A DNA stretch of 64,000 nt from a virus (lineage: Duplodnaviria; Heunggongvirae; Uroviricota; Caudoviricetes). The translations under genes were made by a program, and so were the position numbers. The notes below the pieces were generated by a model, which worked only from the letters and a program-made list of their open reading frames with translations, searched no databases and was not told where the DNA came from. Within the stretch, counting starts at the first letter, position 1, and every line of letters starts with the position of its first letter. This document shows, piece after piece, positions 20,252 to 64,000 of the stretch. The stretch is from the IMG/VR virus record IMGVR_UViG_3300032050_000059; one strand, 5' to 3'.

Positions 20252-20733
20252 AATGCCCTTTCAGTTTTTTGTGTGGTGACTCCACATTTTACAGTTAATA
20301 ATTATTAAGGAAAAGAACAGGGGGGCTATCCCGACTCTCCAAATTCTGCTGGGGGTTTCTGGATGGAATACCCTCCCCTCCCATGCACATAATAGGTTTT
20401 TGGTTCCACGTGGAACATGGGGGGATTGTCAACCTATAGGCTTACATATGGGGGTGTTTTGTCAGCTTATAGGTTTACAAAAAAAATTTTGTTGGTTATA
20501 TGGAGGATGTGTTATAACTTTGGGGCGGTGGGTGGGTTAGGTGATAGTTCCGTCCTATGGATATATGAGCAATTGGTGGTTTGAAGTGGTTGACGGATGT
20601 CTCTGAGCTAAGAATATAAGAATGGGGAAGGTGTATCTGGTTGAAAATAAGACATAATATAGCAATAGTATAAAAGATTGTATTTGACTATGTTATAAAG
20701 TCTTCCTATCTTTGTATCAACTACATTAACAAT
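20252..20733. promoter_or_regulatory. divergent intergenic switch region: G-runs, direct repeats, a perfect palindrome and a host-type promoter
   Basis: The 14-bp perfect palindrome GTTCCACGTGGAAC (20403-20416). Two roughly 30-bp direct repeats, GGGGGGATTGTCAACCTATAGGCTTACA (20419-20446) and GGGGGTGTTTTGTCAGCTTATAGGTTTACA (20450-20479). Several further G5-6 / C-rich runs. Local GC is well above the genome background. Confidence 0.55.
20683..20714 (+). promoter_or_regulatory. Bacteroidetes sigmaA-type promoter (-33 TTTG / -7 TAnnTTTG) for the rightward operon
   Basis: TTTG (20683-20686), then a 20-nt spacer, then TATCTTTG (20707-20714), about 20 nt upstream of ATG 20734. This matches the Bacteroidetes consensus spacing of 19-21 nt. 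Confidence 0.5.
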
Positions 20734-27897: not shown

Positions 27898-28019
27898 AGT
27901 AAATTAGATTAATGCTATATTATCTACGAAAAACCCTCATATAGCAACATAACTCTTTGCTATTCAATTATATCTATCTATTTTTACAGGCGTATAAACC
28001 AAATTAAAATAAACTACAT

Positions 28020-29333: not shown

Positions 29334-30887
29334 ATGGCAATTCAAACAATCCCAGGTCTAACTGGCTTCACGTATGCTCGTGTCGCATCTATGGACAAGC
29401 GTGCTGTGGGTAAGCTAACTGACGCTAACCACCTGGAGAGCTTTCACTCAACTGAGCCTGCTGATTACGATAAGAAAATCATCAGCCTCTACACACAGAG
29501 CTCTCTTTACAGCAATGACTTCCTAGACATGATCAACAAAAGCACGCCTTATTACATTGATAATAATAGCGATGCTTGGAAATGGCAAGTAGCTGTTCCC
29601 TACAAATTCCCTAAGATTATCGACATCCCTGCTTCAACTCTTGAGTTGAGCAAGCCTGGTATCGATGGTCAAGAGTTCCAATTGGTAATTGACACAAACG
29701 AGTTCTCTAAGAACGCAATCGTTTCTGTTGGTTCTCGCCAATATGGTCCTCGCTTTTACGTTATTAAGGATCCAGTTCCTTGGAACATGGGCTTCCTTTA
29801 TAGCTTCACTTTGGTTACAGACAATCCAACTGTAGACTTCGTTAGCCCTACCTTCTTGCAAGTGGGTATCGAACTTGAGTTGGTTGATGCTGCAATTGGT
29901 GAGTTCGATCAAGATTTGTTAGGTCTTCCTCGTTTGGGTGAGCAAATCACAATGTTTGAATCTTTGGGTTCTGCATATGGTTTTGAGCACAAAATCACTG
30001 AGTGGGCTGATGACAAAATGATGCGTGACTCTGCAGGACGTCCTTTGGATATCCTTGTTTATGCACCTCAGCGTCGTAACCAACTTCCTTTGACTCGTAA
30101 CGATGTTAAATGGGAGCCATTCATTGAGTTCTGGATGCGTAAGTCTATGCTTGAGTTGAAAGTTAAGCGTATGATTTGGTCTCGTCCTGGTACTGTTAAG
30201 ACTAACGGTAGCAAGCAAGAACTTAAGCGTACATCTGCTGGTGTTTATCACAGAATGCGTAATAACGGTAACTTGGTTCAGTACAACCGTGGAGAATTCA
30301 CTGCAAACTTGATTCGTTCAGTGTTTGGTGATTTGTTCTATCGTCGTGTGGATGTTAAGGACCGTCGTGTTAAAATGTATACTAATGAAGCAGGTTTTGA
30401 CGTGTTCCAACAAGCTTTGAAGACAGACGCTTTGAACAGTGGTTTGACATTCATGGCTGATAGCGGAAACCGTTACATGCAAGGAGAAGGTCAACACATC
30501 ACTTACAACTTTGCATTCGATGCAATGGTTACTCGTGAGACTGGTCGTGTTGAATTGATTCACTTGAAAGAACTTGACCTGCCTCAATCTAACCTTGAAT
30601 TTGGTCAGAACAAGAAGTCAACTCCTGTATTCATGGTGTTCGACGTATCTCCAATGTCTGATGGTTCTTTGGTTAATAACATCCGTGAAGTTCGTATGAA
30701 GGGTGCACCTTCTATGACTTGGGGTTATATCGATGGAACTCGCCACCACTTGGGCTTTGCTAAGTCTCAGGGTATGAGCTCTGCGAACAAATTCCCAGGA
30801 TATGAAATCTGGATGAAGGATCGTTGTGATGTATTCATTGAAGACTTGTCTCGTACAGTCTTGATTGAGGAAATCCCACAATTCTAA
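29334..30887 (+). CDS. major capsid protein
   Basis: 517 aa. Gene order fits. Extreme translation-optimised codon usage (Arg almost exclusively CGT; GGT/GCT/GTT/AAC/GAC preferred), unlike neighbouring genes. Followed by a multi-hairpin element. Confidence 0.6.
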   Translation: MAIQTIPGLTGFTYARVASMDKRAVGKLTDANHLESFHSTEPADYDKKIISLYTQSSLYSNDFLDMINKSTPYYIDNNSDAWKWQVAVPYKFPKIIDIPASTLELSKPGIDGQEFQLVIDTNEFSKNAIVSVGSRQYGPRFYVIKDPVPWNMGFLYSFTLVTDNPTVDFVSPTFLQVGIELELVDAAIGEFDQDLLGLPRLGEQITMFESLGSAYGFEHKITEWADDKMMRDSAGRPLDILVYAPQRRNQLPLTRNDVKWEPFIEFWMRKSMLELKVKRMIWSRPGTVKTNGSKQELKRTSAGVYHRMRNNGNLVQYNRGEFTANLIRSVFGDLFYRRVDVKDRRVKMYTNEAGFDVFQQALKTDALNSGLTFMADSGNRYMQGEGQHITYNFAFDAMVTRETGRVELIHLKELDLPQSNLEFGQNKKSTPVFMVFDVSPMSDGSLVNNIREVRMKGAPSMTWGYIDGTRHHLGFAKSQGMSSANKFPGYEIWMKDRCDVFIEDLSRTVLIEEIPQF

Positions 30888-31065
30888 GGCCCCCCTGTAA
30901 TCTCAGAATTACAGGTCTGCTTCCTCTGGAAGCGTACATATACCGAGAAGAGAATGCCCCCCACACTCCCATGTGGGGGAGCTCTTCTCAAATTACAGAG
31001 TGTTTGGATTGGGGAGTCTCCCAGTCGCTGGCCCTTCGGTGGGAACCACTCTGCAAATAAAACCA
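30888..31065 (+). ncRNA. GC-rich multi-hairpin RNA element downstream of the capsid gene (terminator/attenuator cluster or structured RNA)
   Basis: Hairpins: CCTGTAAT-CTCAGA-ATTACAGG (30894-30915). GCTTCC-TCT-GGAAGC (30919-30933). GAGAAGAG..CCCCCACA-CTCCCA-TGTGGGGG..CTCTTCTC (30945-30989). CAGAGTG...CACTCTG (30996-31053), enclosing a CCC-TTCGGT-GGG hairpin. Confidence 0.45.
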
Positions 31066-31081
31066 AATAAATAAACTACAT

Positions 31082-32050
31082 ATGGGTAAGTTAGGTAAAA
31101 TCTCAACAATTAAGAAGGAGTATAATAACTCACAACTTCAGACAATGCAAGGTGGTCTTGCACTTAAAGGCTTAACACGTATTCCTGGAACAGGGGTGTT
31201 TAAATATCCCTACAAGGAGCTGGATGGTCAATACAGAACAGGACTTGATCCTAATGCTGCATACATCCGTAGAATCTCTGATCCTCTAGAAAGAGAGATG
31301 GAGATTGAACGTGTTACAAAACTTAAAGACAAGTTACAAGCTGCACTTGGTGATATTGACTTAGGTCCTCGTTCTAGTTTCTGGAACTATGGATTGTCTA
31401 CATCTACACAAGATAGTTTGCATGTTCAGCCTGTGAAATTGCTGGATGGTGATAACTTCTTCGATCTTGCTATTCCTCTTCAGGAATTAGCTTTCTCTTG
31501 GTTACGTGTTCATCCAACAATTGCAAGCTCATATCAAGCTTGGGAACGTGGTGAATATGCTGCTGAAACTCAGTTCTATGTAGCTGATGATGAAATCGAG
31601 AATGCTGTACTCTTCAAGAAGAAGCAACTTATCAATAAAGCTATTGTTAAGTTTGACAGTATGACTCCTGAGAAGAAGAGAAAAGTGGCACGTTTGTTGG
31701 GACTACCTGTAACTGATGATACTAAAGAGGAAGCAGTTTACAACCTTGTAGACAACGTCCTTAAACAAACCGAGTTTAAAAACGGTAAGTATCAAGGTCT
31801 GAATCCTGTTGAAGTGTTCACACGCTTTGCAGACATGAAAGACAACTTACTCCATATTAAAGACTTAGTGAAACAAGCAATTGCTCACTCTGTTTATAGA
31901 GCTAAGCCAAATGGTAAAATCTATGAAGGTGAGTTTGAAATAGCTAAGGACGAAGATGATTTAATTAAACAACTTGCAGATGATGACAACCAAGACTTGC
32001 TCTTGACCCTCGAAGGTAAGTTGAAAACTAAGAAATTAGCTGCAGTATGA
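31082..32050 (+). CDS. hypothetical virion protein (322 aa)
   Basis: ORF in the head/tail module. Confidence 0.45.
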   Translation: MGKLGKISTIKKEYNNSQLQTMQGGLALKGLTRIPGTGVFKYPYKELDGQYRTGLDPNAAYIRRISDPLEREMEIERVTKLKDKLQAALGDIDLGPRSSFWNYGLSTSTQDSLHVQPVKLLDGDNFFDLAIPLQELAFSWLRVHPTIASSYQAWERGEYAAETQFYVADDEIENAVLFKKKQLINKAIVKFDSMTPEKKRKVARLLGLPVTDDTKEEAVYNLVDNVLKQTEFKNGKYQGLNPVEVFTRFADMKDNLLHIKDLVKQAIAHSVYRAKPNGKIYEGEFEIAKDEDDLIKQLADDDNQDLLLTLEGKLKTKKLAAV

Positions 32051-32806: not shown

Positions 32807-33979
32807 ATGGCTGATTTTTCATTAACTACGCTCTTCGTAGTACCAGTAGGGCAAACTGCGCTCCCTAGCTCTGGATCTACGCAAGACTTAACAGCAGGTC
32901 AGGTAGGTATCTACAAAGCTGACTACACTGTTGCCAACGCTGGTAACATTGCTGCTGCTCCTTACTTTTATATTGCGCAGGGCCGTACTAACACTTATCT
33001 GCAAGGCTCTAAGCGTTCTGATAAGATTAAAGGATGTCCTTCAGGTGCTGGTTGCAATAGCAACGTAACTGAATGGTATAAAGTGAACGGTTGTCCTACA
33101 CCATTGACTCAGATCACTGATGTAGTTAACTGGAACGTACAGTGTGGTGACATTGTTACCTTGACACTTCGTGCTCACTCTAGCTATTTGGATACTTTGT
33201 ATTTCAACGGTTTCACTCGTTCAGTGACTGTAAATGCTCCTTGTTGCAACTGTGGTGATAACCCATGTGACACTGTAGACATTCCTGCATTCATTGATGA
33301 TGTTATCTACCATTTGAATTTGCAAGCTCCAGGTAACAACCCTGATAACATCACTTTCTCTGACTTCTATCAGTTCCAGAGAATTGGTAATGACCAAAAC
33401 GCTTTCTTGCGTATCACTGGTAAGCCTCTTACCAAATATGGTCAGCCTTGTGATGTTGCAGCGTTTCCTTTCGAGTATGACAGAATGTGGTTCCGTACAT
33501 TCGTATTCAGTGGACCTGCTACAACTGCTGACTTCATTGTAGCTGATCCTTGTAACGTTGTTGCTGATCCTGTAATTGTACAGCGTTCTTCTTACGCTAC
33601 TGGTACTTCTGCAGAGATTGCACAATTGGAGAAAAACTTCTACAGCTACCAAGCTGGTTACTTGAAGCATCTCTACAGAATGAATGGTTACAATGAGAAC
33701 TTTGAAAGCTGGGTGAGTGATGGTACAACTTATACCACCTACTACATCAAGTTTAATGAGTATAACAAGTCTGAATACAGCTGGGGTGACTATATCAAAG
33801 AAGACAGCACTGTAATTATTGCTGTTGAAAAAGATAGTCTTGCTGAAGCTGCTATTGAGGCTGTTCTTGTAGCTGGTCTTGGTGCAGTGGCTGATGAGAA
33901 TGGAGTTTGTGTAACAACTACTTCTACCACAACCACAGTATGGCCTTCTACTTCTACTACTACAACCTTGATTCCGTAA
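32807..33979 (+). CDS. abundant virion protein candidate (390 aa), Cys-rich with a C-terminal poly-Thr tail
   Basis: Same extreme CGT/GGT/GCT codon bias as the capsid gene. C-terminus TTTSTTTTVWPSTSTTTTLIP. Confidence 0.5.
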   Translation: MADFSLTTLFVVPVGQTALPSSGSTQDLTAGQVGIYKADYTVANAGNIAAAPYFYIAQGRTNTYLQGSKRSDKIKGCPSGAGCNSNVTEWYKVNGCPTPLTQITDVVNWNVQCGDIVTLTLRAHSSYLDTLYFNGFTRSVTVNAPCCNCGDNPCDTVDIPAFIDDVIYHLNLQAPGNNPDNITFSDFYQFQRIGNDQNAFLRITGKPLTKYGQPCDVAAFPFEYDRMWFRTFVFSGPATTADFIVADPCNVVADPVIVQRSSYATGTSAEIAQLEKNFYSYQAGYLKHLYRMNGYNENFESWVSDGTTYTTYYIKFNEYNKSEYSWGDYIKEDSTVIIAVEKDSLAEAAIEAVLVAGLGAVADENGVCVTTTSTTTTVWPSTSTTTTLIP

Positions 33980-34068
33980 TAGTAGGATAGTAACCTAGAT
34001 TATATTAACCTAAGCCAGAGGTGAGAGGATACAAACTCAGATCCTCTGGCTTATTTATTTAGAACAAC

Positions 34069-36154: not shown

Positions 36155-36439
36155 ATGATATTCCTTCCAGAAAATCCTTGCTGTAATCCTATACCAGTAA
36201 CAAACACTATTCCTTGCCCTGGATCAAATCCTTGTGCATCAAATATAGTGTCCTCTGATTATGTTGGGTATAGTGGTCCTAATCTTCCCTGTACAACTAT
36301 CCAAACCTGCAACACACTCACAGTGTCTTTGCAGAAGTTGGATGAACAAATCTGCATTCTTAAAAGCACTGTATATTCTTTACAGCAGCAGATTAATGCA
36401 ATTAATGCCACTACCACTACAACAACTACACTTATTTAA
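36155..36439 (+). CDS. fibre-associated Cys/Pro-rich protein with a C-terminal poly-Thr (about 94 aa)
   Basis: Trimmed from ORF 36113..36439 to the MIFLPENPCCNP start. Ends NATTTTTTTLI. Confidence 0.35.
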   Translation: MIFLPENPCCNPIPVTNTIPCPGSNPCASNIVSSDYVGYSGPNLPCTTIQTCNTLTVSLQKLDEQICILKSTVYSLQQQINAINATTTTTTTLI

Positions 36440-36450
36440 ATCAATAACCC

Positions 36451-37287
36451 ATGACGGTATTAATAACATTAACAATAGCTGGAACTGATACAGGACCATT
36501 TGATCTCTACTCAGATGTAGATGGTTATGTATCAGCGTTTGAGACAGGAGTGAGTAAAGCAGCCTTAGAAGCTGGCTATTCCTCAGCTCTTGTTCCAAAT
36601 GGCACAACAGTGATCAGAGTGAAGTCTACAGGAATTTGTACAAATTATGTAGACATTACAGTGACCACAACCACTACAACCACAACCAGCAGTACCACAA
36701 CTACAACCACCACTACAGCTTTTGTATGTGCTGATTGTAAAACTTGGAACTATGTATCTGGAAACATTCCATTAGGAGGAGACATCATTCACTACTACAG
36801 CTGCTATGATGGCACCCCTCAAACCAGAGTGTTGAGCTTTGGTGATCCTGATGGAGACTTCTGTAACTGTAATAGCGTAGATGCTCCATACACAGAGAAT
36901 GGCACTATAATTACAGAGGTGGGAGTGTGTACAACCACCACTACTACCACCCTATTTACAAACTTGGTATTTGACTTGACAACTGGTATAGGTGGGTATA
37001 CAATCGGTGGAATAGATGTAAACTTTGTAACACCAACCCTCACTGGAGGTACAGATGTTCCATTCAGCACAGATACACACTCATATAACACAAGTCAAAC
37101 AGGCCCAAGCGAAGAGTTGAATATATTTGTTTCATCGTTCACTCTGAACGGTTGTATCACTGTAACTGACAGCTCATCAACGAGTTATCAACAGAATGTA
37201 AGCTCGTCTGGGACATACACTTTCTCAGGACTAGTTATTGACAACATAACACCTGTCCTTGTAGTATGTGCAGATAACGTATGCTAA
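36451..37287 (+). CDS. tail fibre/receptor-binding-like protein with two poly-Thr linkers
   Basis: TVTTTTTTTTSSTTTTTTTTAFVCADC and CTTTTTTTLFTNL linkers separate Cys-containing modules. Last gene before a strong terminator. Confidence 0.45.
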   Translation: MTVLITLTIAGTDTGPFDLYSDVDGYVSAFETGVSKAALEAGYSSALVPNGTTVIRVKSTGICTNYVDITVTTTTTTTTSSTTTTTTTTAFVCADCKTWNYVSGNIPLGGDIIHYYSCYDGTPQTRVLSFGDPDGDFCNCNSVDAPYTENGTIITEVGVCTTTTTTTLFTNLVFDLTTGIGGYTIGGIDVNFVTPTLTGGTDVPFSTDTHSYNTSQTGPSEELNIFVSSFTLNGCITVTDSSSTSYQQNVSSSGTYTFSGLVIDNITPVLVVCADNVC

Positions 37288-37325: not shown

Positions 37326-37361
37326 CTCCCTGGGGTTTCAACCCTGGGGAGTTTTTATTTT
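37326..37361 (+). terminator. rho-independent terminator ending the capsid/fibre transcription unit
   Basis: CTCCCTGGGG-TTTCAA-CCCTGGGGAG: a 10-bp stem with 2 G-U pairs, followed by TTTTTATTTT. It is preceded by a second hairpin AAGCCTTG-N12-CAAGGCTT (37298-37325). Confidence 0.6.
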
Positions 37362-37466
37362 ATAACAAAGTTAGTTAGTACCAATAATGAACTTCGTTAA
37401 AATAATTTGGAAAATATCAAAAAACTTTCGTACCTTTAGGCCAATTTTAATCAAACAAAACCGTAA

Positions 37467-43900: not shown

Positions 43901-45984
43901 ACACTGTAGACACTGGTTTCCAAGCACTTGTAGATGACATCACTCCTAATGTATCAACTATATTTGGTGGTGATACATTCATCAGCAGATTTGCTTTCAA
44001 GACCAAACTTCCATTCTTCATAGATAATCGTGTAAATGCTCCTGATGATAGTGATATATTCTACGATGAGATTGGTAATATAGCCTATCCAAAATACTGG
44101 CACTCAGCACGTTCCATCCTGAAAGATTATGCAATCACAGGTGTGGGCGTACTATCAAACATCATATCTTACAAAGCTCACAACTTTGACTGTCCAAACA
44201 GTCAATTTGTAGCTCCTGGACAACCTAAGGATAGCAATCCTGGAAGAACCTATTACGATGGATATTTCTATCTGTTTGCATATGGTATTCCTAACTTCTA
44301 TTGTGAGAGCTCTTACAACGTAGATTTACGTCAGGCATTCAACAATAGAGAAGGTGACTTCTGGCCTCACGTGAGCACAGGTATTCCTGATGACTGGGTG
44401 CAGCAGAGCTTTGTTCCTATTATTCAGGACAACACCTACTACTATAATGTAACCTATTCTAAACAGAACAGGGAGAACACATTTACCCATTTGCCTATCG
44501 ACTGGGACAAACCTTGCTATACATACTATCCATTCAGAGCTATCTATTCTGATTCTCAGAACATTGATTCTGATAACAGAGTGAATAGCTGGTTGATTTA
44601 CAGAGCCATATCTTACTATGATTTCCCACAGAACTATGGAAATCTGATATCTCTAGACGGAATCCAGAACAGAGCTGTTCTTGCTCGCTTTGAGAACAAG
44701 ACACTCATGTACAACAACCTTCTTACGATAGATACAAGTAACCCTCAGGCTGCATACGTAGGTAATCCTATGCTGTTCAGAGGAGCACCTCCAATTGACT
44801 TTGCAGAAACTGATTTAGGATATGTAGGAAGTCAAAACAAGATGTTGTTGAAGATCCCACAAGGACAAGTGACTGCAGATGCTAAACGTGGTCAAATCTT
44901 CCTCATTAGTGGTACACAGGCTGTGGACATATCTGGATTTGGTTCAGGAGTAAACAGGTTCCTTACAGACCACTTAGCGTTTGAAATCTTACGTTACTTC
45001 CCCAAGGTAAACACTGATAACAACTATGCAGGTATTGGTTTGCATGGTGTATATGATAGTAAGTATGACCGTGTGTTAATCACTAAGCTTGATTACATTC
45101 CAAAAAGAAATGATATTGTATATGATGAGGTTACAAAAGAGTTCTATATAGTTAAAACTGTTAACGGTTTAACTATTAAAACTCCTGTAAACTTAACTGA
45201 CCAAGAATACTTCTGTAACAAGAGTTGGACATTATCCTTCAACTTTAATACTAAGAGCTGGATAAGTTTCCATACATATCTGCCTAACTGGTATATTGGA
45301 GAGAACAACTTCTTCTATTCTGGTATTAATGGATGCTGTGAAGACTTTGAGGTGATTGCTGGTATACCTGGACCTGTTCCAACCACCACTACTACTTCTA
45401 GTACATCTACCACATCTACCAGTTCTACTACTACAACCACTACAACACGTGATTGTCGTCTTGAAGGAGAAGTTGAGATTACAGATTGTCCTCTTGATGG
45501 AACAGCTATTGTAACTGTACCTGCTCCAAATCCTCCTTGTGAAAGACCTCAAGGATTAACTCAAGAGGCGTTCTTTACAGGATATGATATAATTATTCCG
45601 CCAAGCAACACTGTATCTACAGGAAGTGCAACAGACGCATGTGATGCTGTAAACTACCTGAATACATTCGGTGGAAGCTATGTGAATGTTATTCCTACAT
45701 ACGTCCTAGTAGAATACCAAGGATTGTACATAGGATCTGATGTATACATATTCAACGGTACAACAGACTGTGAGACTATTCCTGATGGCTGGTATTTCAC
45801 AGGAGCATCTCAGGCAGTGAATACAGTGTTCCATGTGGTGGGTGGTGAAATCTCAATGATTGTTGTTTGTCAACCTACAACAACTACAACATCAACTAGT
45901 AGCACAACAACTACTACAACCACTACAATAGTTCCTGTTGATTGTATATTTGGTGGAACAGCAGAGGAAACAGCACCTTTATAA
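40909..45984 (+). CDS. giant virion/tail protein (1691 aa) with a poly-Thr linker and a C-terminal module
   Basis: Long ORF. TTTTSSTSTTSTSSTTTTTTT linker at about aa 1485. Second T-rich tract TTTTTSTSSTTTTTTTT near the C-terminus. Confidence 0.5.
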   Translation: MAELEKGNIKQEYNNATTGLNMDQTVNQIQKGRLTYALNAAVENFDANSVNYQNEPGNELCVTFPSGFILIGTHFIQEKNKHIFFITNPETGGSQIGYMENNDCVYRVIVNAPCLNFNIDHPIHKVAHKITNCTTEIYWTDGFNPRRYLDIDDVPKVLKSGTPFCDPEYTDDLDCNQLKLQPNFKIPQLEVTDVTSTGNLIAGTYQFAIQYSDPQGNPYTSYYSITNPTPIADPFITSVNFNYPVGKSIILNISNLEDTGLYQYFNLAVIKTVNDITSVELVGTYYIDNLQKQITYTGQNVTQIRLTINDIFEKFPYYDVAQDLTNAQDVLIWDNLTSIDRINYQSIANQIPLLWETYRIPATENYADELNATNLRGYLRDEVYAFEIVFLLKNGKQTDGFHIPGRIKGPAENLQPDVPDTNPDFIGVPDYTSGGVGYSPYWKIYNTGSVIGTSPGYSPAPDYKGPYQYGQFAYWESTDTYPCNKDVWGDLAGQPIRHHKFPDINVSPAYESKIFTGPGGMVMGNDAVFPIGVRIDVQQVSALIQSSSLTDDQKSDIVAFKIVRADRGTNKSIIAKGILRNVNTYEREEEIYYYPNYPYNDLNADPFLNTTNNAYSQICDGYNVFIDTLAVDPAGGPDFAEIEWTDCNTNKLTKKKVLAIGVYPFCSIGKPRILGPATGKVGLSTYEVWTAQVCNTSPFGFAQGGRIEWDDIYTGITTDWVSGWPTFPTLTLYVVPGTVPVQIEGPGEICFNGPTLVTGPDCKGENPQPGFTEKYRQIFNSPETSFGQPFLGDILKLESVMFGRGKAHFVEVKDNAKYKLLTEEAQRDALESAEDLGDITTPFNATAMFTAYQAYLTIYVNGITRKNYAYSFNSIADYNYGVGVPDNLGIKQRTLDIARYLIPGVLNVGDIHNINNFQRESSVYLRTDLTKTALPFPDQSPNMLSGGNPIVTDISRFTISEKNKCQAPAREEDISVVSYYASLKNVFVNQYGQIYSYDTVDTGFQALVDDITPNVSTIFGGDTFISRFAFKTKLPFFIDNRVNAPDDSDIFYDEIGNIAYPKYWHSARSILKDYAITGVGVLSNIISYKAHNFDCPNSQFVAPGQPKDSNPGRTYYDGYFYLFAYGIPNFYCESSYNVDLRQAFNNREGDFWPHVSTGIPDDWVQQSFVPIIQDNTYYYNVTYSKQNRENTFTHLPIDWDKPCYTYYPFRAIYSDSQNIDSDNRVNSWLIYRAISYYDFPQNYGNLISLDGIQNRAVLARFENKTLMYNNLLTIDTSNPQAAYVGNPMLFRGAPPIDFAETDLGYVGSQNKMLLKIPQGQVTADAKRGQIFLISGTQAVDISGFGSGVNRFLTDHLAFEILRYFPKVNTDNNYAGIGLHGVYDSKYDRVLITKLDYIPKRNDIVYDEVTKEFYIVKTVNGLTIKTPVNLTDQEYFCNKSWTLSFNFNTKSWISFHTYLPNWYIGENNFFYSGINGCCEDFEVIAGIPGPVPTTTTTSSTSTTSTSSTTTTTTTRDCRLEGEVEITDCPLDGTAIVTVPAPNPPCERPQGLTQEAFFTGYDIIIPPSNTVSTGSATDACDAVNYLNTFGGSYVNVIPTYVLVEYQGLYIGSDVYIFNGTTDCETIPDGWYFTGASQAVNTVFHVVGGEISMIVVCQPTTTTTSTSSTTTTTTTTIVPVDCIFGGTAEETAPL

Positions 45985-51026: not shown

Positions 51027-53690
51027 ATGGCCTCTTATACAGACATAATACCCCAGTTTAACCCCTATATCCAGCAGCTTCCTGTGGAGGCTATGGTGCA
51101 GGTGGGTATGGAGAAACAGAAGCGCTATGATGAGGGGGTCCAAAAGATTCAGTCTCAGATAGATAGTGTAGCTGGCTTGGACATATACCATCCTTCAGAT
51201 AGAATGTATTTGCAGTCTAAACTGAATGAACTTGGTAACAATCTTAGAACTGTGGCCGCTGGTGATTTCTCCAACTATCAGCTTGTCAACTCTGTAGGAG
51301 GTATGACTACCCAGATTGTTAAAGACAAAAATGTACAGAATGCTGTACGTTCTACACAACAGATTAGGAAGCAACAAACTTTGATGGACCAGGCTAGGGA
51401 GAAAGGTACCCTCCATAGAAACAATGAGATTTTCTTCAACGACCAGGTGATCTCCTATCTGAATAACAATAAAGTGGGACAGGTATTTGGTGAGAACTAT
51501 CAACCGTACACTGACTACCAGAAAAAGTGGTTGGAAGTCCAAAAGAGTCTTGGTATAAAGGAAACACAAACAGATCTTCCATTTGTAATGCAAGATGGTA
51601 AGATAGTCATTGACCCAAAGACCAAGAAGCCTATGGTCAATGATTACATGGTAAGGGAAACCTTCAAAGGTGTTGATGCTCAAAGACTTAAGGAAGCCAT
51701 CATGGCAGCTATGGATGATAATGACTATGCACAGATGAAGATTGATGCATATGTTAGCTACAAGGGATACACACCTGATATGCTTATTAAGGAAGCTGAT
51801 AGCACTTATAGGTCTAACAAAGAGGAGTTGACAAAGACTATAGACAATCTAACCATCCTGAAAACTCAGAATGTTGGAAATCAACAGATGACCAAGGATA
51901 TAGATGTTCAACTTGAACAATATAAAAAACAGCTGAAGAATACAGAAGATCAGTATAGAGATGTAATAGCAGGAATTCAGGCAAATCCTGAGGGATACAA
52001 ACAGAAGCTATTTGCAATGAATTCTATAAACAACTTTGCTAATAGTTTCTCAAACATATCCCATATTCAAAATATTGTAGATAGTCCCATCAAAAAACAA
52101 ATGAATGAGGACAGAGCCTACAACTTCAAGGTGGTTGAGTTTAACACAAAGAATGCTCAGTGGCAGAAAGAGTTTGGTTTAAAAGTAGCTACAGAATCTA
52201 GACTTGCAAATAAAGAAGCATTTGACCAAGCACTAGCCTTATATAAAGAAGGATTGGGTCCTAATCCTCTTGGTCCAACTACAGCTAAATATGTTGGAGC
52301 TCCTCCTACAGATAAAGAGATATTGGATGGAATGGTAGAAAGCTTTAAACAAGGAGCTGACATAGACCAACTGAATAATGACAAGAATGCATTAAAGGTG
52401 AATTGGGCAAAGAACCAGCCTTCTAAAGCAGACTATGCAAAACAGAAAGGAATAGATCTTAAAAACTATACAGACGCACAATATAGAGCTGATTTAGATA
52501 AACAATTCAACAGTGACTTAGCTGCATATAATTCAAACAAGAACTCTGTAGATGCTCCTACAAGAAAAATCCTTGGTCAGTATTCTGAGCTGGATAGATT
52601 GTATAAGCTTAAGGTTAATGCAATAAATGATGCAACTGAAAAAGCAAACGCACTTCATCCTGAAGTGACTGAAGAGGCAAATAAGCTATCTAACAATAAG
52701 GTGAGCTTTTTGGATTATACATTTAAAGATGGAAAACCTGGAGTGTATAACATACTAACAAAAAGTGCAAGAGAGATATACGAAGATATTCAATCTGGAA
52801 AAGCCACATTAAGAGTGGACAAAGCTCCTGGAGGATATATTGTACTTAGATATCCTGGTTCAAATATTACATATGAAATATCTAAGAAAGGTGGATTCTT
52901 TGGTTCTGACAAGGTGGGAGGAAAACAAACAAGAGAATTGCTTTTGTCTGTTCATGATACATACAACAGAGTAGGACAGTCTATTAAAAATAGAGATGCA
53001 GACTTTGCAAAAATACTTGGTGAAACTATCAACTCTGTAGCTCCAGTATCATCATTGCTTCCAAAGGGAGCAACAAGCACTCTTCTACCTTTGATAGAGG
53101 ATAAACTAGGAAGAGAGCAAAAAGGACAGACAGAGGAACTAGCTGGCTTTGTAAAAGGTAAGGATTTTAACTTTGACACTGTAAAAGAACTAGCTCTAAA
53201 TCCTGACACTAAGGTGACTCATACTACCTGGGGAGATAATGTATTCATTACAATGACTGGAATGCTAGGTAAAAATCTTGCAACTCAGAAGTTTAAGATT
53301 TCAAAGTCTGACTTTGCTACAATGTATCCAAATCTTGTTGACAATACAAATATGGATTTCTGGCAATCAGCAGCAGCAAATGGTAGCACCAACTACAAAT
53401 ATCACGTTGCTAAGAGCGCTTTGATGAATCCAGATGATGCTTTCACTTCTGGCACTTACGATATTCCATCTAAGAAATACATAGTGAAGGGTGATATCTT
53501 CTTTGATCAAACTGACAAAAACAACACCACCCCTGTTGTTTATGTAAAAAGTAAAAAGACAGGAAAGGTTGTTCCTATTCCTGGCGAGGTGTTTTCTACT
53601 TTTTCAGGTTCTGAAAAATCAATGTATCAAGTGAATGATCTGTTGATAGAGAACTACTTTAAAAATAATAATCTAGATGCCGATTTTTAA
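51027..53690 (+). CDS. large virion protein (887 aa), K/N/D-rich
   Basis: ORF. Candidate -7 promoter element TACATTTG at 51005-51012. Ends with tandem stops TAATAA. Confidence 0.45.
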   Translation: MASYTDIIPQFNPYIQQLPVEAMVQVGMEKQKRYDEGVQKIQSQIDSVAGLDIYHPSDRMYLQSKLNELGNNLRTVAAGDFSNYQLVNSVGGMTTQIVKDKNVQNAVRSTQQIRKQQTLMDQAREKGTLHRNNEIFFNDQVISYLNNNKVGQVFGENYQPYTDYQKKWLEVQKSLGIKETQTDLPFVMQDGKIVIDPKTKKPMVNDYMVRETFKGVDAQRLKEAIMAAMDDNDYAQMKIDAYVSYKGYTPDMLIKEADSTYRSNKEELTKTIDNLTILKTQNVGNQQMTKDIDVQLEQYKKQLKNTEDQYRDVIAGIQANPEGYKQKLFAMNSINNFANSFSNISHIQNIVDSPIKKQMNEDRAYNFKVVEFNTKNAQWQKEFGLKVATESRLANKEAFDQALALYKEGLGPNPLGPTTAKYVGAPPTDKEILDGMVESFKQGADIDQLNNDKNALKVNWAKNQPSKADYAKQKGIDLKNYTDAQYRADLDKQFNSDLAAYNSNKNSVDAPTRKILGQYSELDRLYKLKVNAINDATEKANALHPEVTEEANKLSNNKVSFLDYTFKDGKPGVYNILTKSAREIYEDIQSGKATLRVDKAPGGYIVLRYPGSNITYEISKKGGFFGSDKVGGKQTRELLLSVHDTYNRVGQSIKNRDADFAKILGETINSVAPVSSLLPKGATSTLLPLIEDKLGREQKGQTEELAGFVKGKDFNFDTVKELALNPDTKVTHTTWGDNVFITMTGMLGKNLATQKFKISKSDFATMYPNLVDNTNMDFWQSAAANGSTNYKYHVAKSALMNPDDAFTSGTYDIPSKKYIVKGDIFFDQTDKNNTTPVVYVKSKKTGKVVPIPGEVFSTFSGSEKSMYQVNDLLIENYFKNNNLDADF

Positions 53691-53691
53691 T

Positions 53692-56600
53692 AAAGATTTA
53701 CCAGCTTTTGATAAGCCACTTGAAGGATTTCCCAAAGAGCAAGAAGTCTATAAGGGAAAGGTGTTGCCTGACACCCTGCATCCTGCTGTCCCAAATCTAG
53801 ATTCAGACTTTGGACAGGTGGGTACTGGAGATGTTCAAGACCTATTCAGAATGAACTCTGTCCAATCAGGACCTATATTCGGATCTACAATAAGTGAGCT
53901 TTCTAGAAACAAGAGGTATGATTATTATAAGCCAGGAACAAACTATGAAGATTTATATGCAAGAGTACAACCCTGGTACAAGCAGATTGGTAACGGTCTT
54001 GTAAAAGGGGGTGCCTTTATGGTGGGCACCTTTGCACAATCATTCAATAGTATTCCAGAAACAATAAACGCTGTAGCAAAAAAAGATTTATCTGAGCTTG
54101 CTGGAAAAGACTCTTATGTTAGTCCTATAGATGATTGGTATAGAAATCTAGAAGATCTCTATCCCAACTACTATTCAGACTATGAGAAAGCACATCCTTT
54201 TAAAAGCATCCTAGGTAGTGGCTTTGCTAACACCTTTGGAGACAAGTTTGTTAAGAACCTTGGATTCATGGGTGGTGCTATTGCTGGTGCTGTAGTGCAG
54301 GATTTTGCCATAGGTGCTCTTACACAAGGACTTGGTGAAATTCCTTTGCTATCTAACCAGATAGGAAAAGCAGCTCTTTACATGAATAAAATCCTATCCT
54401 CAGAAAGCAGGGTGGGAAGAGCATTGGGTGCTAGTGAAAAGGGTATACTTACATCGTTTCTAGATAGCGGTGTGCAAGCTGGTAGAACAGCTGAGCAGCT
54501 CAATAGAATGGAAACATTGGCTCAATTGGCTGCTTCTAGAAAGATTAACAATCAGTTTAGATATGGACTTAATCTGTGGACATCTGCTCTCACTGAGGCA
54601 GGAATTGAGTCAAGAGATGGATACAGAACATTGAAGACTGATCTGATTGATCAATACAAGCTTGACAACTATGGATTAGAACCCACTGGAAAAGACCTGA
54701 AAGATATTGAGGATATTGCTACATCTGCTATGAATGCTAGGGAAATAGGAAACCTTGGCATCCTCCTTGTATCAAACGCTATACAGTTTGAAAACATATT
54801 AAGACCTTTCTCTTCAGCAAGAGTAGGTGTAACCTCTCCTATATTCCAGGAAATTGCTGGTAAGCGCATTGCTCTTCAAGATGGACTAATGGGTGGCTAT
54901 TCAGAAATAGTGCCTAAGTCTACATTTGGAAAGATAGTTAGAGACATCAAACCATATGCACCTGAACTGTTTACAGAAGGTGTGTTTGAAGAGGGTGGAC
55001 AGTTTGCAATAGAAAGAGGTACGTACGACTATTACAATAAGAAGTATTTTGATCAGAAAAATAACAAATCAAGAAACGACTTAGCTGAATTCATTGATTC
55101 TATAGGAACTGGACTAGTTGACCAATTCAGAACAACAGCTGGTTGGGAGAACATGTTCCTAGGAGCTTTGACAGCAGGACTCACTGGTAAAGCAAAGAGT
55201 GTATATAGTAACATAAAAGGTACAGGATCAAAAGCTCAGATAGCTGCTGAGATTAACAATCTCAACTCTAGCCAGCTCATGGGTGTATTTGAGAACAACT
55301 TTGAAAATGCTGCTCAACAGCTTAAGGCTTCTAAAGACATGGAAGCTGCTGTTAAGAAGAGAGATATATTTGAATACAAGAATGCTCAGTTTAGAGCTTT
55401 GTTCTCTTGGGCAAATGCCAGAATGCAGGGCAACAGATATGGTCTTCTAGAGGAAGAAATTAAACTTGCCAAAGAACTTCCTAATGAGCAATTCAAACAA
55501 ATGTTTGGATTTGATGCTACGGCAGACAACAGACAGGTTGTAAATGCATACCTGTCATTGGTTCAAGAGGAAGCTAATAAGATTAAGAGAAACTACGACA
55601 AGATCAATGAGTTCTTTGTAAACCCTTACAAGTATATTAGAACTCCTAAGACTGATGAGGAAATAACTGAAAGCGAGAACTACAGGAAGTATGAGAACTA
55701 TAAGACAGCAATGACTTATTTCCCATCCTTGATTGATCATGCTGACAGAAGAACCGATGAGATACAGAAAGAACTGATTGACATCAATCCTCTATTGTCT
55801 GTAGATATAGTTAAGAAACTTGGTAGTGTTGACTCGCTATTAGACTTGGCTAAAGAATATGAGAAAGAGGCTACAACATCTCTTGGTCTAATTAGTGACA
55901 TCACCACTCCTGAGGAAAGAAAGAAACTGGAGAGAAGAGCTAAGACACTTAGAAACCTAGCAGAAAAAATATATGGTGTTACAGACACCTACTATTTAGT
56001 AGCAAAAGATGAGATGTCTAAAGATGTTCTTTCTAGGAAGGAAAATCTACCAGGCGACTATCTTAAGCTATTTGACAACCTAGTAAACTTTGAGATTAAC
56101 GGAAGAGACCCTCTAAGAACTGATAAGAACATCAAACATCCTCTGGATGTAGAAAAGGCTATCTCTCTAGCTGTAGATCTTAACAGACTGGCTGAGATGA
56201 AGAAAGATGCAGGAGATGCATTTGATATTCTATCTAATCCTGAGAAAGGGTTTGACGAGTTTAACAAGGTGGATGAGAACAGACTTCCTCCTAAACATTC
56301 TCCTGAGTCAGAACTCACTCCTGGTAGAGAGTATGAAACTTCAAATCTTGGTAAGTATAGAACCAGGAAGATTGCTGATGGAAGATACCAAGTGATTAGT
56401 CCAGACAAGACTATTGTATCTACACATCCTTCAAAAGAAGAAGCATCTGCCACTACTAAGTATTTGAATGAAAATCTAAGCAGCCTACTTAAGGTGACTG
56501 TGGTTAGAGATAATGGAGATGGCACTATCAGAATCACTGACTCTAATGGTGACATTCAAGATATTCCTAAAGCAGATATATTAAAATACACTCCTCTTGA

Positions 56601-59600
56601 AACCCAAGAGGAAAAGATAGCTAAGCAGAAAGAGCAAATAGCTAATGAGCAGAAAGACCTAGAGGCAGATTCTGGAAACGTAAACACAGGAAACCCTGCA
56701 GAACCTTACGGTAAAGAAAGTGCTCTTCCTGATATAAAGATATTGTTCAGCTCAAGCACTACAGAATCTGAAGGTAGTGATGATCCTAACTGGCAGAAGA
56801 ATGCTGCTCTGTCTCCTATTCACATTAAGAATTCTAGAGAGTTTTTAAACAAGGCACAGGGTTTTGCTAATAGAGCAAACCTAAGAGCCATCCTTATCAC
56901 TCCTCTATTGGAGAAAGCATATGGATTAGAGGGACTCACTCAAATCTCCTATGGTGTCAGAAATGAGGACCTAGCAACACAAGAACAAAAAGACAAGTTC
57001 TTAAAAGACACTACAGATTTAAACAATGGATTCATTGCCCAAGTGTTTGTAGAACAAGTAGGTAGTGATCTATACTTTATTGATAAAACTGGAAACAAAC
57101 TTGGTAAGTTTGGAGAGCAATTAGATGAAACCAAACTTGGTAATGTTGTTTTCCAGACAATGCGTAGAGCTGCTCTTAAAGATAGTCAGGGTGGTACAAA
57201 AGCAAGAAGTGGACAGGAGGAAGAAGCTAAAGTATATCTAGAAGCTTGGAAAAAAGAAAGAGCAAACATATTTGCTACAGATCCTAACGCCTCTCCTACA
57301 GTTTATGAGTTCAACATATCTAGAGGTATACCTATAGATGGTGATACTCCTAATCATGTAGCAGGCACACTGATTACATCTGATCCTAAGGAAGAAAGAC
57401 AAGTTCTTAAGGGTCAATCAATTATACAGATTCCAACAACCAAGACTATCACATTCAAAGGAAGAGCTATAAACTTCCCTAATGGCAGACCAGTTCTTGT
57501 ATATGGTGACAATGTTGCCTTCTTGAACAATGTGAAGTTGGATGGCAAGAGAGCTCAGGTGATATATGCTGTTATTGAGAAGATGGCTAATGACATCACT
57601 CAGAGAGCTAATGCTGGAAAGAAGATTGTATTCAGTAAGACAAAAGAAGCCAAGTTCCTGCAGAACATTCTCTATTGGAGAACAGGAGATACAAAAGAGG
57701 GTTCTAATCAGATAAACATTTCTGAGGATGGAACCACAATATCTTTTGCTGGTAAGTCATTCCCTATTGCTAAACTGGCTGAGAATAAGAAGGAATTAAT
57801 TGAGGCCATCAGTAACTCCTACCACAATACAAACAACAAGAGCTTGTCTGAGGAAATGTTCAGCAAGTCCTTTACAGAGTTCTACATTGAGAAGGGAGAA
57901 CTCAAGTCTCGTGATTGGGCTAACTACCAGTCCTACTTGTTGTCCTCTACATTCCCAGATGGATCTAAGAGAGCTGCAGCTGACACCCCTCTTACAACTA
58001 AAATAGCTATTCCTCTTTCTGAGATTCCTTATACACATAAGCAGAAATACTCAACTCTTATAGGACTTGAGCTTCCTATTGGTGTAATAAACAAACCTGC
58101 TGCAGAAGCTAAAGAAACTGTTGTAGAAGCTCCTAAAGGTAAGTTTGATTACAACGGAACAAAAGAGAACACCACTCCTATTCTGAGCTTTGGTAATGTA
58201 TCCTTCACTGTTAAGGAAGGAGAAGATCCTCAGTTCTTGGTAGACAGCGAGGAGTTTAAGAAGACACAAGATAACCTTGTTAAGAAACTAAGACAAAACT
58301 CCCCAGAGGCAGATGAGGAATCATTGGTTAAACAAGCCAATGGTGTCATCCTCAGTGTTGTTAGAAAGGAAGTGGATAATGATCTAAAGACTGCTACAGT
58401 TGAGGAAGTTGTTCCCACTGCTGAGGAAGTAAAACCTACTGAGGAAGTAAAACCTGTTGAAGAGAAAAAAGAAGAAGAACCTAAGAAGACACAGTTTGAT
58501 CCTAAGAAGACAAAGAAGAGAGGAAACCTATTCAGAGCTGTAAGTGAGACTGATGAGTCTGAGAGAATGACTGAGGCTGATATTGAAGCCTTTAAGAAAT
58601 GGCATGCTGAGAAGGTACCTCAAATCCCTTATGAGATTCTTGGACAGATGGTAACCATCAATCCTAATAGAAAGGCATGGGGTGTGTTTGAAAATGGTGT
58701 GGCTAAGTTTGTACGTGGTGGATTGAGAGCTACAGAATACCATGAGATATTTCATGGCATATGGAGAGGATTGCTAAACGCTGATGAAAGAGCTGCTATT
58801 GTAAAAGAGTTTAATGCTAAAGAGGGTAGCTTCAAAGACAGGCTTAGTGGTAAGACTATCAACTTTGCTGATGCTACAGAAGAGCAAGTGGAAGATAGAC
58901 TAGCTGATGACTTCAGTGATTACAGAAAAGGTAAGCTTGCTGCTAGAACTTTAGGAGATGCTATCCGTGAGTTCTTCAAAAGAATCATGGATTTCTTCAA
59001 GTCCTTTGTAGCCAAACCTACATTAAAGGACCAACTGTTTGATAATATTGAGCAAGGTAGATTCAAAGATAGAGAGCTTGCACCTGAGGTTAAGAACCTA
59101 GGCCCAGCTTACAGAGCTGCAGAAGGTCTTAACGAACAGCAGACTAACGAGTTTGTTCAGGATATGACAGCCCTATCTTCTGCCATGATCTTTGGAAATG
59201 GAAAGATAGGTGCAATTGATAAGTCAGCCATCTATGATATTAGAAAGATAACCAGCAAGCAAGTGTTTGATGAGATTAAAAACATCTACACTGAGCAGGG
59301 CTGGATGGATCAACTTAGTGAAAACACCTGGAATGATCTGGTTGAAAAGACTAAGCGCTCCCTAAAAGCCAACCTTAAGGTTTCCTTTAATGAGGAAGAC
59401 TTGGTGAACATCAACGATGAGCAAAGTAATAACAGAGACTATGCTCCAGAACCATTCTCTACAGACTATAAGAAGTCTGCTCCTGTTGGAATAAAGTTCA
59501 CATCTTCTACTATTCCTAAGACCAAAGCAATGAGTCAGGAGGGTAGAACATCTCTCACTCTTCCTGATCTAAAAGATACTAATAATCTTTATTCACTGGT

Positions 59601-62600: not shown

Positions 62601-64000
62601 GATATATGAGGATGAGAAGGGTAAGAGATATTGTGAGGTGATGATTCCTCACTGGTTCAGAGATTTGGGCAAGCTGTCTAAGAAGACAGATGCTGAAATC
62701 CTGCAATATCTGAACACTCCTGAAGGAAGAAAGATACTAACAGGTGTTGGTTTCCGTATTCCTACACAGGCGCTAAGCTCTGCAGAAGTGTTTGTTGTGA
62801 AGGGCTTCCTTCCTAAGGCTATGGGTAAGACGGTGGTTGTTCCATCAGCCATCACTACAAAAGCTGGATCTGACTTTGATATAGATAAACTCAACATGTA
62901 TCTGAAAGCCACCTATATTGATAGGAATGGTAATCTCAAACTTGTCACTCTTGAGGGTGATGAGGCAAGTACAAGAGCTTTCTATACAAAGGTGTTCAAT
63001 GATTCATTAGCTGGAAAACAAATGTACAAGACTGAGCTGTTGGAAGCTGCACAGATCTTATCATACAACCTTGATGATCCTAAGAATCTTGTAGAGAAAT
63101 ATGCTAATACATTAAACATTGTTCTTGAAGGAGTTACTGACTCATCTGACTATGAGCAGGCTATAATAGATGATATTAATGAGCTTGGAGATGAAAACAT
63201 TCAGAAGGGTCTGAGAGAGAAGTTTGTAGATGAGATGTATACAAAAGCTCTTGAAAATGAATACTATGAGAGCCTAGAAGAACTGCTTACACTCCCTGAG
63301 AACTTCAGCAGATTGGTGAATCCTGTAACTGATGGTGGTCTGAAGAAGCTAGCTGGAAAGATAGATGCATTGAAAGGATATGATGAAGCAGCTGTTAAGA
63401 ACAAGCTTCTTAATAGAAACTTCCTGAGCAATCTAAGGAATGCATTCATCACTGGTAAGAAGTGGGTGGGTATTGTGGCTACAAACATCACAGGACACTC
63501 TCTTGCACAGAAGTCTAAGATTATAATTGATCCAGTTAGATTTGAAAATGTTAAGAATAGAGACGAGAGAAACATTCTTAAATACAATGGTGGACAGATC
63601 CTCCTTGATCATAACACTATAGAAGTGGATGGTAAGACATATGCTTCTATCTCAGGAATCTATGATGCTAAGAATGAAGGATACATCTCTGATGGTTTAT
63701 CTGGATATGCTACAGCTGTTGTGGACGTTGCTAAAGACCCATACATCTTGAGAATCATTAAGAGCGATCTTTTGATAAGCACATTCATGTTCCTCAGAAG
63801 AGTAGGTGTTCCTAATGAGCAGCTGGCAATGTTCATGAACCAGCCAATCATAGATGAGTATATTAAGCTCTTAGATAAGAAGAAGTCAAAAACTCTATTT
63901 GATTCAAGATATATAAATGAGATACAGGAGTTTTTCCCTCATCTTAAACAAGACATAACTAATACGTTTGATAAGGATGGTCTTGAAGAAAACATCAAAA
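53692..64000 (+). CDS. giant virion protein (more than 3400 aa, 3' partial) containing a crAss-like virion RNA polymerase DPBB catalytic segment; start codon uncertain
   Basis: Frame 53692... is stop-free to the window end. The first in-frame ATG is at 53851; GTG is at 53761. At 62792-62886 the translation reads GFRIPTQALSSAEVFVVKGFLP...VVPSAITTKAGSDFDIDKLNMY, paralleling RNAP beta-prime RAPTLH...NADFDGDQMAVH. An HEIFH motif lies at 58741-58755. Confidence 0.6.

Follow-up and report, generated by a model that had tools for sequence, protein, structure and literature searches.

A covarying structured RNA in the spacer behind the capsid gene of a crAss-like phage and its possible part in tuning late messages

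Stable hairpins without a U-tract stand after the most highly expressed cistron in several bacterial operons, as in the Rhodobacter puf hairpins, the repetitive extragenic palindromic (REP) sequences of Escherichia coli malE-malF, and papBA, and they are thought to block 3' exonucleases and thereby to cause differential abundance of the cistrons. In phage T7, the T-phi terminator after the capsid gene (gene 10) limits downstream expression, the capsid message is stabilised, and hairpins with an internal loop serve as RNase III sites. Other transcripts are divided by tRNA-like punctuation, such as the tRNA punctuation of mitochondria and the t-elements of plants, and the put RNA of phage HK022 and the EAR RNA of the Bacillus subtilis eps operon are compact multi-hairpin RNAs within operons. 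Crassvirales are among the most abundant phages, and their Bacteroidota hosts are largely without Shine–Dalgarno (SD)-dependent initiation and Hfq-type RNA biology; to our knowledge, almost nothing has been established about post-transcriptional control in these phages and their hosts. In this study, we analysed a 64,000-nt stretch of a Caudoviricetes genome (IMG/VR record IMGVR_UViG_3300032050_000059, the whole of which is called the window), in which an array of hairpins ending in a three-way junction (3WJ) occupies the spacer between the major capsid protein gene and the next gene. The spacer carries an evolutionarily maintained, structured RNA of the plus strand, and we believe that it most likely tunes the capsid mRNA against the messages of the next genes, which would be ordinary phage regulation in an unusually elaborate form.

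For Cellulophaga phage phi14:2, a member of Crassvirales, it has been reported that the capsid transcript is the most abundant in RNA-seq, that promoter motifs precede the gp092 and portal homologues, that the host RNA polymerase transcribes the middle and late genes, and that intergenic long non-coding RNAs are abundant (bioRxiv 10.1101/2020.03.07.982082). In this phage, the spacer that separates g091, the gene of the major head protein, from g090 contains a stable 11-bp GC-rich hairpin without a clean U-tract, followed by an A/U-rich leader. This single hairpin occupies a spacer of 62 nt, compared with five helices, including a 3WJ, in 194 nt in the window; the likeness of the two is one of position and not of demonstrated sequence homology, and the capsid proteins are too distant for tblastn.

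The array runs on the plus strand from 30894 to 31053 and consists of the hairpins H1, H2 and H3 and the 3WJ in series (Table 1). An earlier note, made from the letters of this DNA, had described a GC-rich series of hairpins directly after a capsid gene. The helices are all present in the sequence and in the folds, the Pfam match identifies the upstream gene as a crAss-type capsid gene, and the GC content is 0.49 across the spacer, with a peak of 0.53, against approximately 0.40 in the flanks. The last hairpin had been read as CAGAGTG/CACTCTG enclosing CCC-TTCGGT-GGG; these helices stand, but a second enclosed hairpin had been missed, so that the element is a 3WJ. The motif ATTACAG does occur twice (30908-30914 and 30992-30998), but the recurrence is not conserved, since the hairpin containing the first copy gives way to unrelated sequence in relatives. 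The lower stem of H3, GAGAAGAG/CUCUUCUC, pairs a purine tract with a pyrimidine tract, and the upper stem is the GC clamp CCCCCACA/UGUGGGGG. The whole region (206 nt) folded at -70.4 kcal/mol, compared with -52.8 +/- 4.0 kcal/mol for shuffled sequences (z = -4.4), and 0/200 shuffles were as good. The energy of the 3WJ folded by itself was not significant (z = -1.65); the 3WJ is therefore counted as real on the strength of covariation and not of folding energy.

A search with the capsid protein gave 80 IMG/VR loci (L001-L080) with 96-100% amino-acid identity, and the downstream protein of the most divergent of them gave 80 further loci (L081-L160); the two sets together contain 96 unique spacers. 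The alignments A2 and A5 were made by MAFFT without being fitted to the structure, which was drawn by hand. RNAalifold on the raw MAFFT alignment missed P1, the outer helix of the 3WJ, owing to a one-column misalignment in one clade, and the hand-drawn structure and covariance models were used instead. Covariance model R1 found one match per locus at the same place, in 80/80 loci of the first set and 72/80 of the second; H3 and the 3WJ thus occur in approximately 150 related metagenomic phage loci, in a single copy each and at the same position. Searches of the 64-kb window, both filtered and unfiltered, found no further copy of the 3WJ (best match 70.7 bits, next 17 bits).

In alignment A2 (46 distinct core sequences), 93.7% of the cells were standard pairs, compared with 45-57% when the partners were slid by 1-3 columns; double-sided changes occurred in 20/32 pairs, and the observed values were reached by 0/500 shuffles. 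In the second locus set, compensatory changes were seen in 27/32 pairs. For the 3WJ alone (MAFFT, 79 distinct sequences), 91.6% of the cells were paired against 38-49% in the slid controls, with double changes in 19/22 pairs and 351 double-change cells against 107 in the shuffles. The 3-bp extension of helix P2 beneath its bulged G is supported, with G-C replaced by A-U in one clade, and the outer pairs of P1, although close to invariant, also covary in some side branches, from C-G to U-A in L146 and L157 and from A-U to G-C in L148. Over all pairs (51 distinct sequences), G·U was found 91 times and A·C 21 times, and this excess shows that the folded molecule is the plus-strand RNA. All five helices covary on this strand in the approximately 150 loci, which rules out a chance origin and bears out the suggestion of the earlier note that the region is a structured RNA more elaborate than a simple terminator. 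That note had proposed to look for covariation among relatives and had allowed that they might lack any conserved structure here; they keep it.

The structure is maintained while much of its sequence drifts. The mean pairwise identity of the 3WJ is 0.62, level with third codon positions (0.62-0.73), while its pairing is still approximately 92%. Within the 3WJ, sequence itself is conserved in the near-invariant CAGA/UCUG of basal P1, in the bulged and nearly invariant G of P2, and in the loop UUCGRU. The region of H1 and H2 has a mean pairwise identity of 0.30 and is practically unalignable; it contains hairpins in all lineages, with sequences unrelated between them. H1 shows compensatory changes with respect to L028 and L034 and is represented by non-homologous hairpins in other clades. 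H2 is optional; it is found in the window and in L028, L034 and L047, and the L053 clade has it in the form ACACC-UCU-GGUGU. H1 and H2 are freely replaceable. The A-rich leader that follows the 3WJ has a mean pairwise identity of 0.80, above that of third codon positions. In all relatives, and before both of its genes, the leader sequence is conserved beyond synonymous sites, which might reflect a role as a translational enhancer or as a binding site.

Table 1. Positions in the window of the spacer, its helices and the neighbouring operon features.
Feature	Position	Strand	Description
Spacer, 194 nt	30888-31081	+	From capsid gene 29334-30887 to open reading frame (ORF) 31082-32050
H1, 8-bp hairpin	30894-30901 / 30908-30915	+	CCTGTAAT/ATTACAGG; fold -8.8 kcal/mol, z = -4.2
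H2, 7-bp hairpin, UCU loop	30918-30924 / 30928-30934	+	Fold -8.4 kcal/mol, z = -3.6
H3, interrupted hairpin	30945-30989	+	GAGAAGAG..CCCCCACA/TGTGGGGG..CTCTTCTC; -27.1 kcal/mol, z = -4.95
3WJ	30996-31053	+	P1 closing P2 and P3
3WJ P1, CAGAGTG/CACTCTG	30996-31002 / 31047-31053	+	7 bp, outer helix
3WJ P2	31004-31014 / 31019-31030	+	8-bp hairpin 31007-31014 / 31019-31026, extended below bulged G 31027
3WJ P3, CCC-UUCGGU-GGG	31032-31034 / 31041-31043	+	Loop UUCGGU
Major capsid protein gene, crAss type	29334-30887	+	Pfam PF23898 Crass_capsid, E = 6e-26; PHROG major head protein
Downstream gene, 322 aa	31082-32050	+	By position, phi14:2 g090
Bacteroidota-type promoter, candidate	27956-27986	+	TTTG-N19-TATTTTTA, pattern match
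A-rich 5' untranslated region (5' UTR) of ORF 28020	27994-28019	+	ATAAACCAAATTAAAATAAACTACAT; paralogue of the leader after the array
A-rich leader of ORF 31082	31054-31081, ~27 nt	+	CAAAUAAAACCAAAUAAAUAAACUACAU; copy of the ORF 28020 5' UTR
Canonical intrinsic terminator	34011-34060 (also delimited as 34011-34053)	+	Hairpin, then UUAUUUAUUU
Canonical terminator	37326-37351	+	Hairpin and U-tract

The genes around the spacer are all on the plus strand, and ORF 28020, a gp092-like gene, lies directly upstream of the capsid gene. The same leader, AAACCAAAU..AACUACAU-AUG, stands before both ORF 28020 and ORF 31082, and both copies are kept in all relatives. Before ORF 31082 it starts at the 3' edge of the 3WJ and is unstructured, its fold of -1.4 kcal/mol being no better than that of shuffles. 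The published consensus for the primary sigma factor of Bacteroidetes has TTTG at -33 and TAnnTTTG at -7, and a 5' UTR of approximately 27 nt is of typical length in Bacteroides (PMC7366714). The motif TTTG-N19-TAnnTTTR precedes the gp092-like gene in 61/63 loci, always with a spacer of 19 nt and 5-9 nt upstream of the leader, and it was found in 0/92 spacers downstream of the capsid gene. Because this Bacteroidota-type promoter lies just upstream of the ORF 28020 copy, the A-rich tail of the spacer corresponds to a complete 5' UTR of approximately 27 nt. Reading the tail itself as a sigma-70 promoter (TTTACA-N16-TAAAAT) was rejected, as the -10-like hexamer is not conserved and the Bacteroidota promoter lies further upstream. 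In the intergenic DNA of the window, plus-strand matches to the motif stand before ORFs 20734, 28020 and 37467, and a fourth plus-strand match (9844) falls within a minus-strand ORF.

The terminator at 34011 is kept in at least 53/74 relatives. We infer one transcription unit, in which the promoter at 27956-27986 would be followed by the gp092-like gene, the capsid gene, the array, three genes and the terminator at approximately 34011. Since the promoter is found only before the gp092-like gene, none is found in the spacers and the terminator lies three genes downstream, the array would be intercistronic. It therefore has, in silico, the location of a decay barrier, namely an untranslated spacer inside one predicted unit, and the operon context fits a role in capsid:downstream stoichiometry. 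The late region of phi14:2 is arranged like that of the window, with terminase, portal, gp092-like gene, capsid gene, spacer, three structural genes and a canonical terminator. Upstream of g092 there is a Bacteroidota-type promoter motif, TTTG-N21-TATATTTG, for which the window has the TTTG-N19 counterpart, and the terminator after g088 is the equivalent of that at 34011.

Some other regions of the window deserve mention. The second terminator (37326-37351) is followed by a Bacteroidota-type promoter at 37406-37438. The intergenic region at 20252-20733, 482 nt long and G-rich, lies between the divergent replication and structural modules, has a minimum free energy of -128 kcal/mol and ends in a perfect promoter, TTTG-N20-TATCTTTG, at 20683-20714; it could encode a non-coding RNA, and phi14:2, for comparison, has abundant intergenic ones. 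From 53677 to 64000 on the plus strand, there is a stop-free frame of at least 3,441 codons, which continues past the last letter of the window. No ORFs are listed in this region because the single frame spans it, and its product is probably a giant, RNA polymerase-like virion protein of the crAss type. Imperfect direct repeats of ACNACN (Thr-rich) at 33907-33967, 36406-36725 and 45389-45947, near the ends of or inside several structural ORFs, probably encode flexible linkers of tail or fibre proteins.

In the best-supported reading, to which we give a probability of roughly one half, the array would act between cistrons as a decay barrier or leaky terminator and would lift the level of the capsid message over that of the downstream cistrons while the SD-less leader is kept open. 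The high abundance of the capsid transcript in phi14:2 lends this indirect support. The late operon would be transcribed by a Bacteroidota-type host RNA polymerase, and the array would act in cis on the plus-strand RNA. Its stable hairpins, H3 foremost, would block 3'->5' exonucleases, so that the capsid-coding segment would accumulate above the downstream cistrons. H3 may also halt some polymerases, since the pyrimidine tract CUCUUCUC directly 3' of its GC clamp is similar to a degenerate U-tract. Because every structure is closed in itself, the adjacent A-rich leader of approximately 27 nt would remain single-stranded for SD-independent initiation, and the 3WJ would be an extra module that forms a structured 5' boundary of this leader.

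The comparison with terminators bears on this proposal. As the earlier note had observed, no hairpin is followed by a clean U-tract, and the terminator scan found no plus-strand terminator-like site in the spacer. The upper stem of H3, CCCCCACA/UGUGGGGG, is as GC-rich as a terminator hairpin should be; 3' of the clamp in the window stands AGCUCUUCUCAAAUU, with no U run. A U run (GAGGGGAG-UUUUAUU) was found only in the clade L127/132/147/148/150/154/159, which has one canonical terminator, AAAAUCUCCCCUC..GAGGGGAGUUUUAUU, in place of H1-H3, and a reduced 3WJ with the leader 3' of it. H3 shares the plan of this terminator, with a purine tract, a GC clamp and a pyrimidine tract. The tract 3' of the H3 clamp varies between clades from CUCUUCUC to CUUUUCUC, and in L066, L099 and L130 the latter makes a marginal U run. 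The true terminator in the position of H3 in the L127 clade and the CUUUUCUC tract after H3 in other clades support a link between H3 and terminators.

The capsid cluster contains 3,829 members; relatives were listed down to 82% identity, and eight contigs at 82-87% were read. Four of these (L162, L167, L168 and L169) have only a single H3-like hairpin, which abuts the leader in three of the four; L163 and L166 have an H3-like hairpin and one more, and in L164, H1 and H3 are joined by a 3WJ that scores weakly (16 bits). In L161, the arms of a terminator-like hairpin are swapped, and an AT-rich three-way junction retains the UUUUCGAU loop. From these architectures, an H3-type hairpin is the family-wide core and the 3WJ an elaboration of the clade of the window. 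An H3-like hairpin after the capsid gene is a general feature of the family, seen in the relatives at 82-87% and, by position, in phi14:2. The 3WJ, as a module of one clade, travels with the leader downstream of it. In L074 and L078, extra sequence is inserted between H3 and the 3WJ, and L064 has a duplicated leader.

Two of the distant relatives show further details. In L161 (4055-4186; capsid 82% identical), the swapped H3 arms CUCUUCUCC ... GGAGAAGAG are followed by UAUUU, and the closing helix of its three-way junction is wholly AT-rich, with the UUUUCGAU loop kept. In L163 (4055-4198), whose capsid is 83% identical, the H3-like hairpin has a C-rich apical loop, CUGCUCCC, that forms an 8-nt perfect complement of the 5' arm of the next hairpin, GGGAGCAG, which suggests a pseudoknot or an alternative fold. 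The window has a weaker counterpart of 6 nt (ACUCCC 30965-70 / GGGAGU 31012-17), which is not conserved. A further capsid homologue, P0056 (86% identical), is deposited at NCBI under an 'Alphaproteobacteria bacterium' metagenome-assembled genome, on a 114-kb contig; given the Bacteroidota-type promoters, this contig is most likely a phage mis-binned into that genome.

Several points weigh against a decay barrier or leaky terminator. A plain decay barrier does not account for the conserved CAGA/UCUG of P1, for the bulged G or for the loop UUCGRU, nor for the persistence of the 3WJ 3' of a true terminator in the L127 clade. Termination by H3 is speculative because there is no proximal U run. The promoter is a prediction by consensus match, and the hairpin of phi14:2 is analogous by position only.

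Known kinds of RNA and other explanations of the conserved blocks were also considered. An Rfam 15 scan (E <= 10) gave no family at its gathering threshold; the best matches, Scr5676 (19.7 bits, threshold 56, E = 0.37) and MIR9772 (17.6 bits, threshold 64), were both on the minus strand and driven by the palindromes. The sequence gives no sign of a hammerhead or other self-cleaving ribozyme of three-way-junction topology: the junction strands are 0-3 nt long, without the hammerhead core CUGANGA ... GAAA ... UH, and no Rfam ribozyme matched. Near and distant similarity searches found no DNA match among GenBank phages. With the capsid protein, tblastn found only Leptolyngbya phage Lbo-JY46 (25.6% identity), which was of no use for the spacer, and the proteins upstream and downstream of the spacer found nothing among PDB sequences. 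Following a lead from crAss001 to Y-RNA and TROVE, ten replication-module proteins were examined and showed no TROVE domain. The 3WJ is not an insertion into 'TTACAG|GC', as the TTACAG of the paralogous copy coincides with the last bases of the -7 box and those directly behind it. Nor is the invariant TCTGC a -35-like block, because the outer P1 pairs covary in the side branches named above. Pseudoknots of the P3 loop or J1/2 with the leader, or of the H3 loop with the P2 apex, amount to 5-6 bp in the window and are not kept in relatives.

The spacer is most probably not coding sequence. In the window the capsid-gene frame is open for 60 codons beyond the TAA stop, and an ATG ORF of 38 codons lies inside H3-3WJ (window 30888-31070); relatives keep neither. 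Spacer lengths modulo 3 are distributed 29/32/31, the longest open frame varies between relatives, and the next in-frame stop comes at a median of 4 codons past the capsid stop, which argues against a read-through extension of the capsid. The antisense 60-aa ORF (30884..31066), which the earlier note called spurious, is indeed listed; no frame is conserved.

Among the other explanations, processing of the transcript is the one that fares best, and we regard it as unlikely without being far-fetched. An endonuclease would recognise the 3WJ and cut at one or both of its borders, so that the capsid message would end in H3 and the downstream message would begin with a primary-like leader of approximately 27 nt. 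The 3' edge of P1 (31053) lies within 1-3 nt of the site that matches the predicted start of the ORF 28020 transcript (5-9 nt past the -7 box), and the border bases A|CAGA ... UCUG|C are the best conserved of the element. H3, with 8 bp, an internal loop and 8 bp, has what we take to be the layout of a T7 RNase III site, and P1 with its 7 bp and the P3 loop UUCGAU, which recalls a T-loop, point toward tRNA. The tRNA likeness does not go far, however. ARAGORN found no tRNA or tmRNA in the window, and none in the 96 unique spacers in its standard mode; its relaxed and mitochondrial modes made scattered, inconsistent calls on both strands. P3 has 4 bp and a 6-nt loop rather than 5 bp and 7 nt, 1-3 unpaired nucleotides separate P3 from P1, and the 3' tail is C-AAAU, with no CCA. 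About one third of the sequences have G at position 5 of the loop, and the single-hairpin relatives manage without a 3WJ. At similarly low odds, the 3WJ may represent an undescribed class of RNA punctuation or regulation in Bacteroidota phages, in which a nuclease or RNA-binding protein would make or mark the 5' boundary of an SD-less 5' UTR. If this were true, an internal cistron would be given the same leader context as the primary transcript.

It is a little less probable again that the 3WJ is a cis-regulatory operator, to which a small ligand or a protein of the phage or the host would bind and which would control the translation of ORF 31082 through the leader. Its place directly before the leader, at a distance of 4-10 nt except in two lineages (the L074 insert and the L064 leader duplication), its retention where a terminator replaces H1-H3, its single-copy, gene-specific occurrence, and the conserved unpaired bulged G and UUCGRU loop amid freely covarying stems would all suit such a role. 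The 3WJ lacks the features of a riboswitch: few of its unpaired positions are conserved, the main ones being the bulged G and, in one loop, UUC, and strands of 0-3 nt leave scant room for a ligand pocket; no Rfam riboswitch or leader family matched. The start codon and leader are never sequestered in the predicted folds, which offer no alternative-pairing expression platform, and the 82-87% relatives keep the same downstream gene and leader and dispense with the element.

A small RNA released from within the operon, either H3 with the 3WJ or the 3WJ alone, and acting in trans on host or phage targets seems improbable. Conserved structure with drifting sequence is typical of stable non-coding RNAs, and phi14:2 has abundant intergenic non-coding RNAs, albeit in other parts of the genome. 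In Bacteroides thetaiotaomicron, small RNAs within operons have been documented that have a processing site at their start or end (PMC7366714). Against this, no single-stranded seed is conserved, the loops of H3 and P2 vary freely, the element has neither a promoter nor a terminator of its own, and its position relative to the leader is strictly fixed.

Processive antitermination of the put or EAR type, in which the nascent 3WJ would alter RNA polymerase so that it reads through later terminators, is more doubtful still. The element is intercistronic and lies upstream of the conserved terminators at approximately 34011 and 37326, and ORF 34069 starts approximately 9 nt past the first U-tract, which leaves no room for a promoter, so that this gene must depend on read-through. 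However, no sequence or Rfam similarity to a described family was found, and the relatives without a 3WJ (L162 and L167-L169) and phi14:2 have the same gene order, the terminator having been checked in phi14:2 only. Finally, we give hardly any credit to an ordinary cluster of Rho-independent terminators, an accident of GC content or a hidden coding region, for although the H3 stem is GC-rich, a minus-strand terminator-like call lies at 30980-30957 and a frame is open after the capsid stop in the window, the spacer lacks a plus-strand U-tract in a phage with textbook terminators elsewhere, all its neighbours and the G·U excess favour the plus strand, and covariation and the non-conserved frame largely refute these explanations.

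The locus is a well-defined test case that bears on the ratio of the capsid message to the downstream structural messages, with approximately 100 distinct spacer variants read. Nature supplies variants for direct comparison: the full array, a true terminator with the junction, a single hairpin, and swapped arms. Should the 3WJ turn out to direct processing or to bind a protein, it would add both a tool and a principle of regulation that are new for Bacteroidota; if the array is only a decay barrier, it is a well-documented but ordinary example. A survey of IMG/VR reported 8,495 covariation-supported RNA candidates in phage contigs, including terminators, tRNA-like elements and motifs upstream of genes (PMC10690425), and this anonymous catalogue may already list the array motif.

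Set beside the described systems, the array shares with T7 a signal right after the capsid gene, and H3 has the layout of two stems and an internal loop of the RNase III sites. T-phi has a U-tract and H3 none, and T7 uses a phage polymerase, in contrast to the host polymerase and Bacteroidota-type promoters predicted here. Like the elements of tRNA-like punctuation, the 3WJ has a 7-bp closing helix and a small arm with a UUCGAU loop, and it lies between two cistrons with a border at what would be the start of a mature 5' UTR. Unlike them, it fails ARAGORN, its arm has 4 bp and a 6-nt loop, a linker breaks the acceptor/T stack, and it has neither CCA nor an anticodon-type 7-nt loop. With the puf, REP and papBA elements, the array has in common stable hairpins in an untranslated intercistronic spacer and the lack of a U-tract. 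Those elements are simple hairpins or REP repeats, whereas the array adds a covarying 3WJ with a conserved loop and abuts a duplicated 5' UTR. The array is thus a structured RNA without a described family in a very abundant environmental crAss-like group, and as a post-capsid spacer with a probable part in operon tuning it is of a familiar kind.

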